Positions 41,352 through 41,367 of a DNA stretch of 41,587 bases are shown in pieces. The translations under genes were made by a program, and so were the position numbers. The stretch's first letter is position 1, and every line of letters begins with the position of its first letter. Origin of the DNA: a virus. Taxonomy: Duplodnaviria; Heunggongvirae; Uroviricota; Caudoviricetes. The notes beneath the pieces are model-generated. The model did not search any database, was not told the origin of the DNA, and saw only the letters and a program-made list of their open reading frames with translations. Location: positions 1-41,587 of the IMG/VR virus record IMGVR_UViG_2541047938_000008. The stretch is one strand, 5' to 3'.

Positions 41352-41367
41352 TTGCAGGTTCGATTCC
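41352..41367. repeat. Second exact copy of the argW T-arm 16-mer (att core-like)
   Basis: TTGCAGGTTCGATTCC identical to 1054-1069, in the torI promoter region. Confidence 0.5.

Follow-up and report, generated by a model that had tools for sequence, protein, structure and literature searches.

A conserved copy of an argW T-loop segment in the torI leader lies inside the recombination module and may mimic an integrase half-site

The window analysed here is a stretch of 41,587 nt from a caudoviral genome (IMG/VR record IMGVR_UViG_2541047938_000008), with parts of a recombination module at both ends. On the left, the tRNA-Arg(CCT) gene argW (1009-1083, plus strand; located by ARAGORN) is the integration target and is intact at attL. 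Modules of the KplE1/HK620/Sf6 type are bordered by a 16-nt core, CTGCAGGGGACACCAT (PMC2951348), whose attL copy lies at 1069-1084 on the plus strand. It is followed by the TorI binding sites I1-I5 (1091-1178, plus strand), which we matched to the pentamers that define such sites (GTTCG, GATCG and GTCCG) and to their spacing (PMC2951348): GTTCG at 1091-1095, GTCCG at 1111-1115, GTTCG at 1154-1158 and at 1164-1168, and GATCG at 1174-1178. The intS promoter region (1179-1244, plus strand), assigned from the sequence and PMC2951348, begins with the −35 element TTGACA (1179-1184). Arm-type P′ sites for IntS (GGGTAAAA, GGATAAAA and TTTACCC) overlap this element and contain the conserved TAAA that marks arm-type sites (PMC2951348). 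The intS gene (1245-2402, plus strand) adjoins attL and is transcribed away from argW; it encodes a P4-like heterobivalent integrase of 385 aa with arm-binding, central and catalytic domains (PF13356, PF22022 and PF00589), 98-99% identical to the integrases of HK620 and HK633.

The last gene at the attR end is torI (41387-41587, plus strand, ATG at 41387), which encodes an excisionase or recombination directionality factor of 66 aa, 100% identical to TorI/HkaC/gp18. Its Shine-Dalgarno sequence, GGAG (41374-41377, plus strand), is conserved in relatives, and its terminal bases open the first IntS arm-type P site (GGGTAA...). In the phage form, attP lies between torI and int, as the contiguous arrangement in Sf6 and HK620 shows. 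In KplE1-type prophages the integrase is produced constitutively at a low level and excision is governed by torI expression (PMC2951348).

The subject of this study is a 16-nt sequence, TTGCAGGTTCGATTCC, that had been predicted to occur identically in argW and upstream of torI. This was confirmed: exactly two matches were found in the window, both on the plus strand (1054-1069 and 41352-41367), and there was no third match in the window with up to two mismatches tolerated. The claim that chance is a very unlikely origin also held, as shuffled sequences averaged 0.03 matches and at least two were never reached in 100 shuffles. Copy 1 lies in the argW T-arm, where it spans the 5′ strand of the T-stem, the T-loop and the initial two bases of the 3′ strand, and flanks the att core on the host side (B). 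Copy 2 is located 20 nt upstream of the torI start and, as predicted, between a terminator and the ribosome-binding site, with a terminator-like hairpin (41320-41335) and a T run on its 5′ side and the GGAG on its 3′ side. We refer to its right-hand part, GTTCGATTCC(C) (41358-41368, plus strand), as the box; in the torI leader, 6-7 nt separate it from the ribosome-binding site downstream, and its positions 41358-41367 agree letter for letter with 1060-1069 in argW. ARAGORN detected no tRNA at copy 2 and the identity with argW stops at 16 nt, and we therefore rejected a tRNA pseudogene at this place. No T-arm can form at the box, because the partner strand of the T-stem is absent. Elsewhere in the window, genes for tRNA-Thr(TGT) and tRNA-Asn(GTT) are present on the minus strand (27356-27511), and the Asn T-arm, GGTTCGAGTCC, is the sole other near match to the box. 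The published primer attL-KpnI (GCTAATTGCAGGTTCGATTCC; PMC3509656) corresponds to 1049-1069 of the window, and its 3′ 16 nt match the copy upstream of torI (41352-41367), which gives this primer a second potential priming site in every lysogen.

A repeat of a tRNA fragment near a prophage end could mark the second attachment site, in which case copy 2 would be the real attR and torI would lie outside the prophage. We took the sequence past the end of the window from Escherichia coli 2017.01.04CC (NZ_AP021891.1), which matches the window at 100%. An att core, CTGCAAGGGACACCAT, was found just beyond the window end, 75 bp past the torI stop codon and followed by dsdC (L001 3963-3978, corresponding to a would-be window position of 41662-41677). 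The same layout is present in K-12, with a perfect core CTGCAGGGGACACCAT downstream of torI and an identical sequence over the 50 nt upstream of torI. Copy 2 itself is not followed by host DNA, as an attR core should be, but by the torI leader, and in the circular genomes of Sf6 and HK620 the 16-mer, torI, attP and int are contiguous. The original prediction had already judged copy 2 unlikely to be attR and had named a second core beyond the window as the deciding observation; the core downstream of torI, in both the source genome and K-12, bears this out. Panis et al. obtained excision in vitro with a 135-bp attR that had its outer primer within the final 20 nt of torI. Since this attR excludes the 16-mer, the site is internal and is not required for excision in vitro. 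The 16-nt identity alone speaks for an attR at copy 2; with the CTGCA(G/A)GGGACACCAT core next to dsdC and the unbroken order of box, torI, attP and int in the two phages against it, we consider this reading practically ruled out by the extended sequence. Rather than a prophage junction, the 16-mer is a conserved cis element within the KplE1/HK620/Sf6-type module.

The core is thus duplicated at both ends of the prophage, exactly at attL and with one mismatch, CTGCAAGGG, at attR. The attR core CTGCAAGGGACACCAT differs from the attL core (1069-1084) by a single G-to-A change inside the inferred crossover region. A 30-mer with this variant occurred in 2 of 5426 complete E. coli genomes, both of them assemblies of this isolate, and the canonical 30-mer in 618. 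The change could impair excision or could be an assembly error.

The surroundings of the torI leader are mosaic. A remnant of a P22/HK97-type xis gene, from its 5′ end (LTLDEAFSFIKISRPT; 41267-41316, plus strand), matches the xis region of P22, ES18, epsilon34 and others at 88-92% of nucleotides. It lies directly upstream of the torI leader and marks a mosaic joint at which a lambda/P22-type xis-int module has been replaced by torI-attP-intS. It is followed by the intrinsic-terminator-like hairpin with its T run (41320-41342, plus strand), which is common to HK97, HK022 and 434. A further terminator at 40882-40901 corresponds to the one that stands directly before the box in Sf6 and HK620; in the present phage an ORF (40892-41263, for which no Pfam match was found), the xis relic and the second terminator lie between it and the box.

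Between the second terminator and the box we found a degenerate CII-box-like repeat, TTAC-N5-TTGC (41343-41355, plus strand), homologous to the TTGC-N6-TTGC upstream of HK97 xis. Its second TTGC is identical with the first four bases of the 16-mer. When the torI leader is aligned with the xis leader of HK97, the order of terminator, TTGC repeat pair and Shine-Dalgarno sequence is the same; the repeat spacing is N5 rather than N6, and ~18 extra bases (AGGTTCGATTCCCTATTC) lie between the second TTGC and GGAG. In one relative (L016) the AGGTTCGATTCCCTATTC segment is cleanly missing. This alignment and the clean absence in L016 indicate that the first four bases of the 16-mer are probably a relic of the CII box and that the tRNA-like segment is probably a discrete insertion. 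With its initial TTGC aligned to the second TTGC in the CII box of lambda/HK97, the 16-mer may owe part of its exact match to chance. The likely origin of the leader is the insertion of a short argW-derived segment of ~18-24 nt into a lambda-like xis leader composed of terminator, CII box and Shine-Dalgarno sequence.

In phage lambda, PI is the CII-dependent int promoter upstream of, and within, xis. By analogy, CII might act on TTGC-N5-TTGC with a transcription start just past the torI Shine-Dalgarno sequence and the box serving as spacer, so that integrase would be produced without excisionase during the establishment of lysogeny. This would agree with the homology of the leader to the lambda/HK97 xis leader, with the CII protein (PF05269) encoded by this phage and with the predictions in two database records: that of HK620 annotates a 'promoter: phage integration' and 'cII protein' binding here, and that of Sf6 annotates 'pI'. 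The repeat in this phage, however, reads TTAC-N5-TTGC and thus combines a degenerate member with the wrong spacing, and canonical TTGC-N6-TTGC sites occur elsewhere in the window, at 34379-34392, the expected PRE position, and at 28109-28122. A consensus scan of the window and of the HK620 version revealed no promoter-like site at or near the box and no −10-like hexamer, so that neither element of a CII-dependent promoter (TTGC-N6-TTGC and a −10 sequence) was found. Moreover, the TTGC repeats are missing in most lineages that carry the box, yet the supposed spacer is conserved, and intS has its own mapped promoter (PMC2951348). We therefore rejected a promoter at the box on the basis of the empty scan and the repeat spacing, and regard CII activation there as a highly improbable explanation. 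The excisionase promoter that the original prediction had placed at this site could not be upheld either; its sole basis is the predictions in the HK620 and Sf6 records. Of the two canonical CII sites, that at 34379-34392 lies inside the start of cII and points toward cI, as PRE would, and that at 28109-28122 lies inside a 207-aa ORF on the opposite strand and is possibly PaQ-like.

We then compared the leaders of torI homologues. Many lineages carry the box, with the consensus GTTCGATT[CT]CC, 26-35 nt before the start codon. It is present in E. coli, Sf6 and HK620, in prophages of Serratia, Pantoea, Edwardsiella and Citrobacter-like hosts, in the Salmonella phages g341c and Emek, whose excisionases are ~50% identical to TorI, and in Erwinia phage phiEt88, with an excisionase only 39% identical. 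Erwinia phage Midgardsormr38 has a tandem pair of CAGGTTCGATTCCC, 18 nt apart, upstream of its excisionase gene (L005 2484-2516). The left flanks of box-bearing lineages are mutually unrelated, and only the 10-11 nt of GTTCGATTCC(C) are deeply conserved across diverged relatives; the TGCAGG portion of the 16-mer, which it has in common with the core, is not conserved, in contrast to the T-loop part. Among 55 distinct diverged leaders from IMG/VR, 37 had the box, 2 had decayed copies and 16 had an unrelated leader. No box was found in Klebsiella phages, Erwinia phage 49 and the loci L016, L018, L019 and L023-L029. As these modules look functional, the box is dispensable. One of them, L027 from Proteus hauseri, has a TorI homologue beside an oppositely oriented integrase gene and argW, in a conventional xis-int-attP layout without the box.

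In representatives anchored on the box, the positions GTTCGATT were invariant while adjoining leader positions varied, although this invariance table is biased by the selection of representatives with at most one mismatch. A frequent variant of the box, GTTCGATTTCC, deviates from the tRNA sequence, and in L014 and L017 the tRNA match is extended by 2-3 nt (CCTG). A scan of IMG/VR that yielded only loci with 100%-identical TorI was of use for polymorphism counts. Across 80 E. coli-type loci, polymorphism per site was 0.005 in the box, 0.009 in the rest of the leader and 0.044 at third codon positions of torI; in these loci the whole leader is constrained and not the box by itself. The exact 30-mer around the box was present in 1202 of 5426 complete E. 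coli genomes, including K-12. We conclude that the box is a genuine element, that selection acts on it and that it lies within a recombination module that is well known.

These data also bear on the suggestion in the original prediction that copy 2 is the scar of an older integration, i.e. an argW fragment left by an integrase-mediated or illegitimate event and without present function. As a possible origin this stands: in comparison with HK97 and L016 the box stands out as a discrete indel of 18-24 nt, many lineages dispense with it, sporadic SNPs and the two decayed copies occur, and the CCTG extension in L014 and L017 is what a decaying longer copy would leave. What the scar does not explain is the conservation. 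Eight positions (GTTCGATT) are invariant among the representatives selected at no more than one mismatch, although their excisionases are 39-50% identical and their flanks cannot be aligned; a neutral 10-mer is unlikely to outlast such divergence, and a segment of 10-16 nt is too short for homogenization against argW. A functionless scar thus appears improbable to us.

The spacing between box and Shine-Dalgarno sequence is 4-8 nt in most lineages, and this fairly constant distance, with both moving together as one leader unit, would also suit an element that acts in the torI mRNA. The T-loop-like sequence GUUCGAUUCC could alter translation or stability, either by masking the Shine-Dalgarno sequence through UUCC-GGAG pairing, which from the sequences is possible in every lineage, or by binding a factor that recognizes T-loops. 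However, such a stem would consist of 4 bp, one of them a wobble pair, and is marginal. The consensus fold of the aligned leaders had −0.54 kcal/mol and no compensatory pairs, and a search of Rfam returned no family at the gathering threshold (best E-value 0.43; best match at 18.6 bits against a threshold of 70, in unrelated families). With both searches empty, a structured RNA or Rfam family at this site was rejected, and we rate RNA-level action of the box as very unlikely.

To what does the box correspond in the recombination module? The argW core TGCAGGGGAC was found in every module examined, and the attP core, TGTC-TGCAGGG-GACA, is an inverted repeat around seven bases. From this inverted repeat, and not from mapped cleavage, we infer that TGCAGGG is the 7-bp crossover region. 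The 10 nt of argW directly left of it are exactly the box, which is therefore identical to the attB flank that abuts the putative crossover region. Judged by its sequence, the box duplicates the core-type half-site on the host side (B) of attB, with neither a crossover region nor a partner half-site; a full core-type site was not found at the box, as CTATTCG comes next instead of TGCAGGG and a GACACC-like partner is only weakly resembled near the Shine-Dalgarno sequence. The TAAA motif of IntS arm-type sites (as in GGGTAAAA) is absent from 41352-41368. An arm-type site at the box was rejected, since GTTCG, GATCG and GTCCG are TorI sites and arm-type sites carry TAAA (PMC2951348).

The box does contain GTTCG (41358-41362), the pentamer of I1, I3 and I4, which conforms to the G[TA][TC]CG of TorI sites (PMC2951348). 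TorI might thus bind its own leader through the box and regulate its own synthesis, as in the repression of intS. A second pentamer-like element lies 12 nt downstream over the Shine-Dalgarno sequence (ATTCG in E. coli, GTCCG in Edwardsiella, GTTCG in P. stewartii and GATCG in L176), and the tandem duplication in Midgardsormr38 resembles an operator array. Three observations argue against a TorI operator. First, among 23 GTTCG sites in the P′ arms of 11 lineages the next base was C in 16, T in 7 and A in none, whereas the box always reads GTTCGA. Second, phiEt88 and the L139-type and L147-type modules have excisionase repeats of the RTTACC type and no GTTCG in their arms, yet keep the box unchanged. 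Third, conservation runs over ATTCC(C), past what the I sites share. We consider TorI binding at the box unlikely. Within this module family the excisionase repeats in the P′ arms of L117, L139, L147 and L164 differ, with GTTCG, RTTACC and CGACCAGAAC/CGAAC types. Two RTTACC-type loci, L140 and L141, have CATTACC ~10 nt upstream of the box, in agreement with their own excisionase repeat, and this may be a separate excisionase operator. In Synechococcus (L033 and L035), paired CGTTCG repeats come after distant TorI-like genes, an indication that recognition of GTTCG is old in the TorI protein family.

The box is likewise unaffected by the switch of arm-type sites between lineages, from GGGTAAAA to GGGCATA. 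Core site C on the phage side changes as well and is T-loop-like, (A)TTCGATGT[AC], in many lineages, which suggests that TTCGAT may be the sequence read by the integrase. No relative with a torI-attP-int arrangement aimed at a tRNA gene other than argW was found. More distant integrases (Yersinia YeP6, Pseudomonas VW-6S and F116-like) and distant TorI-like genes (L027 and L032-L035) occur in other gene layouts. The interpretation of copy 2 as an internal core-type site, which the original prediction had favoured, fits these comparative data in so far as the box equals the 10 nt abutting the inferred crossover region and is independent of the type of excisionase and arm sites; the TGCAGG part that the 16-mer has in common with the core does not belong to the conserved element.

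The explanation that we tentatively put first, while giving it less than an even chance, is that the box mimics the attB half-site and would be bound by the core-binding and catalytic part of IntS, with an effect on torI expression or on an extended att complex. This part of the integrase would recognize the box as it recognizes B in attB and attL, and would thereby be placed on the torI leader. There, it could lower the expression of excisionase that results from read-through, or join an extended attP/attR complex; strand exchange at the box would not be expected. Isolated core-type half-sites are generally bound weakly by tyrosine integrases. Considering also that a mutation of the KplE1 core left IntS binding to attL unchanged (PMC2951348), occupancy of the box would require assistance by arm-type sites 225 bp away. 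Such assistance may come from IntS protomers at the two arm-type sites in the 3′-terminal part of torI, ~225 bp from the box.

Several findings are consistent with the half-site mimic: the internal position that follows from the core downstream of torI and the minimal attR, the conservation of the box across diverged lineages with low polymorphism, and the fact that it tracks attB while excisionase and arm sites switch. There is also a precedent, as IntS and TorI regulate transcription by binding to att sites at the intS promoter (PMC2951348). Against it stand the dispensability of the box in many modules, the common variant GTTCGATTTCC that differs from the tRNA, and the constraint on the whole E. 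coli-type leader. Furthermore, the crossover position is deduced from an inverted repeat, and the compared lineages all target a single tRNA gene, argW.

[quoted passage not shown] We know of no description of a regulatory use of a core-type half-site by tyrosine integrases. In a still bolder variant, the T-loop-like sites that flank torI and the P arm (the box and TTCGATGTA) would mark the excisionase/P-arm segment as a cassette inserted by the integrase. The portions of the Ansaldi-group literature on KplE1 available to us, and the passages on Kapi1 and mv4, contain no description of the box.

An element beside the torI ribosome-binding site that has the sequence of the integrase's chromosomal half-site would be an obvious candidate for a control point of torI. 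It also bears on the evolution of attP sites and of tRNA-derived sequences in mosaic phages. If the box is only a constrained relic, its value is smaller and lies in the caution that it advises against calling prophage ends from repeats of tRNA fragments.

The closest known system is the KplE1 (CPS-53)/HK620/Sf6 module at argW (Panis, Mejean and Ansaldi 2007; Panis et al. 2010), with the same integrase, TorI, core and layout of I1-I5 and P′ sites. In contrast to KplE1, a 10-kb remnant, the window holds a full-length lambdoid/P22-like prophage with a private G-to-A change in the attR core. Compared with the B half-site in an attB of the lambda Int type, the box has the same sequence as the 10 nt flanking the inferred crossover in argW, but stands alone, without a matching crossover region or inverted partner, ~305 bp from the real core. 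With the TorI sites I1-I5 it has GTTCG in common, but the next base is A in the box and C or T in the 23 arm sites. Its place relative to terminator and Shine-Dalgarno sequence is that of lambda PI and its flanks are homologous to the HK97 xis leader, whereas the repeat spacing is N5 and not N6, one repeat is degenerate, a −10 sequence is absent and ~18 nt are inserted between repeat and Shine-Dalgarno sequence. Elements that integrate into tRNA genes reportedly carry partial tRNA copies in their attP. The box is likewise phage-borne and identical to part of the target tRNA; unlike those copies, it is not contiguous with the core, as the excisionase gene and the P arm lie between the two, and the tRNA is not rebuilt from it upon integration.
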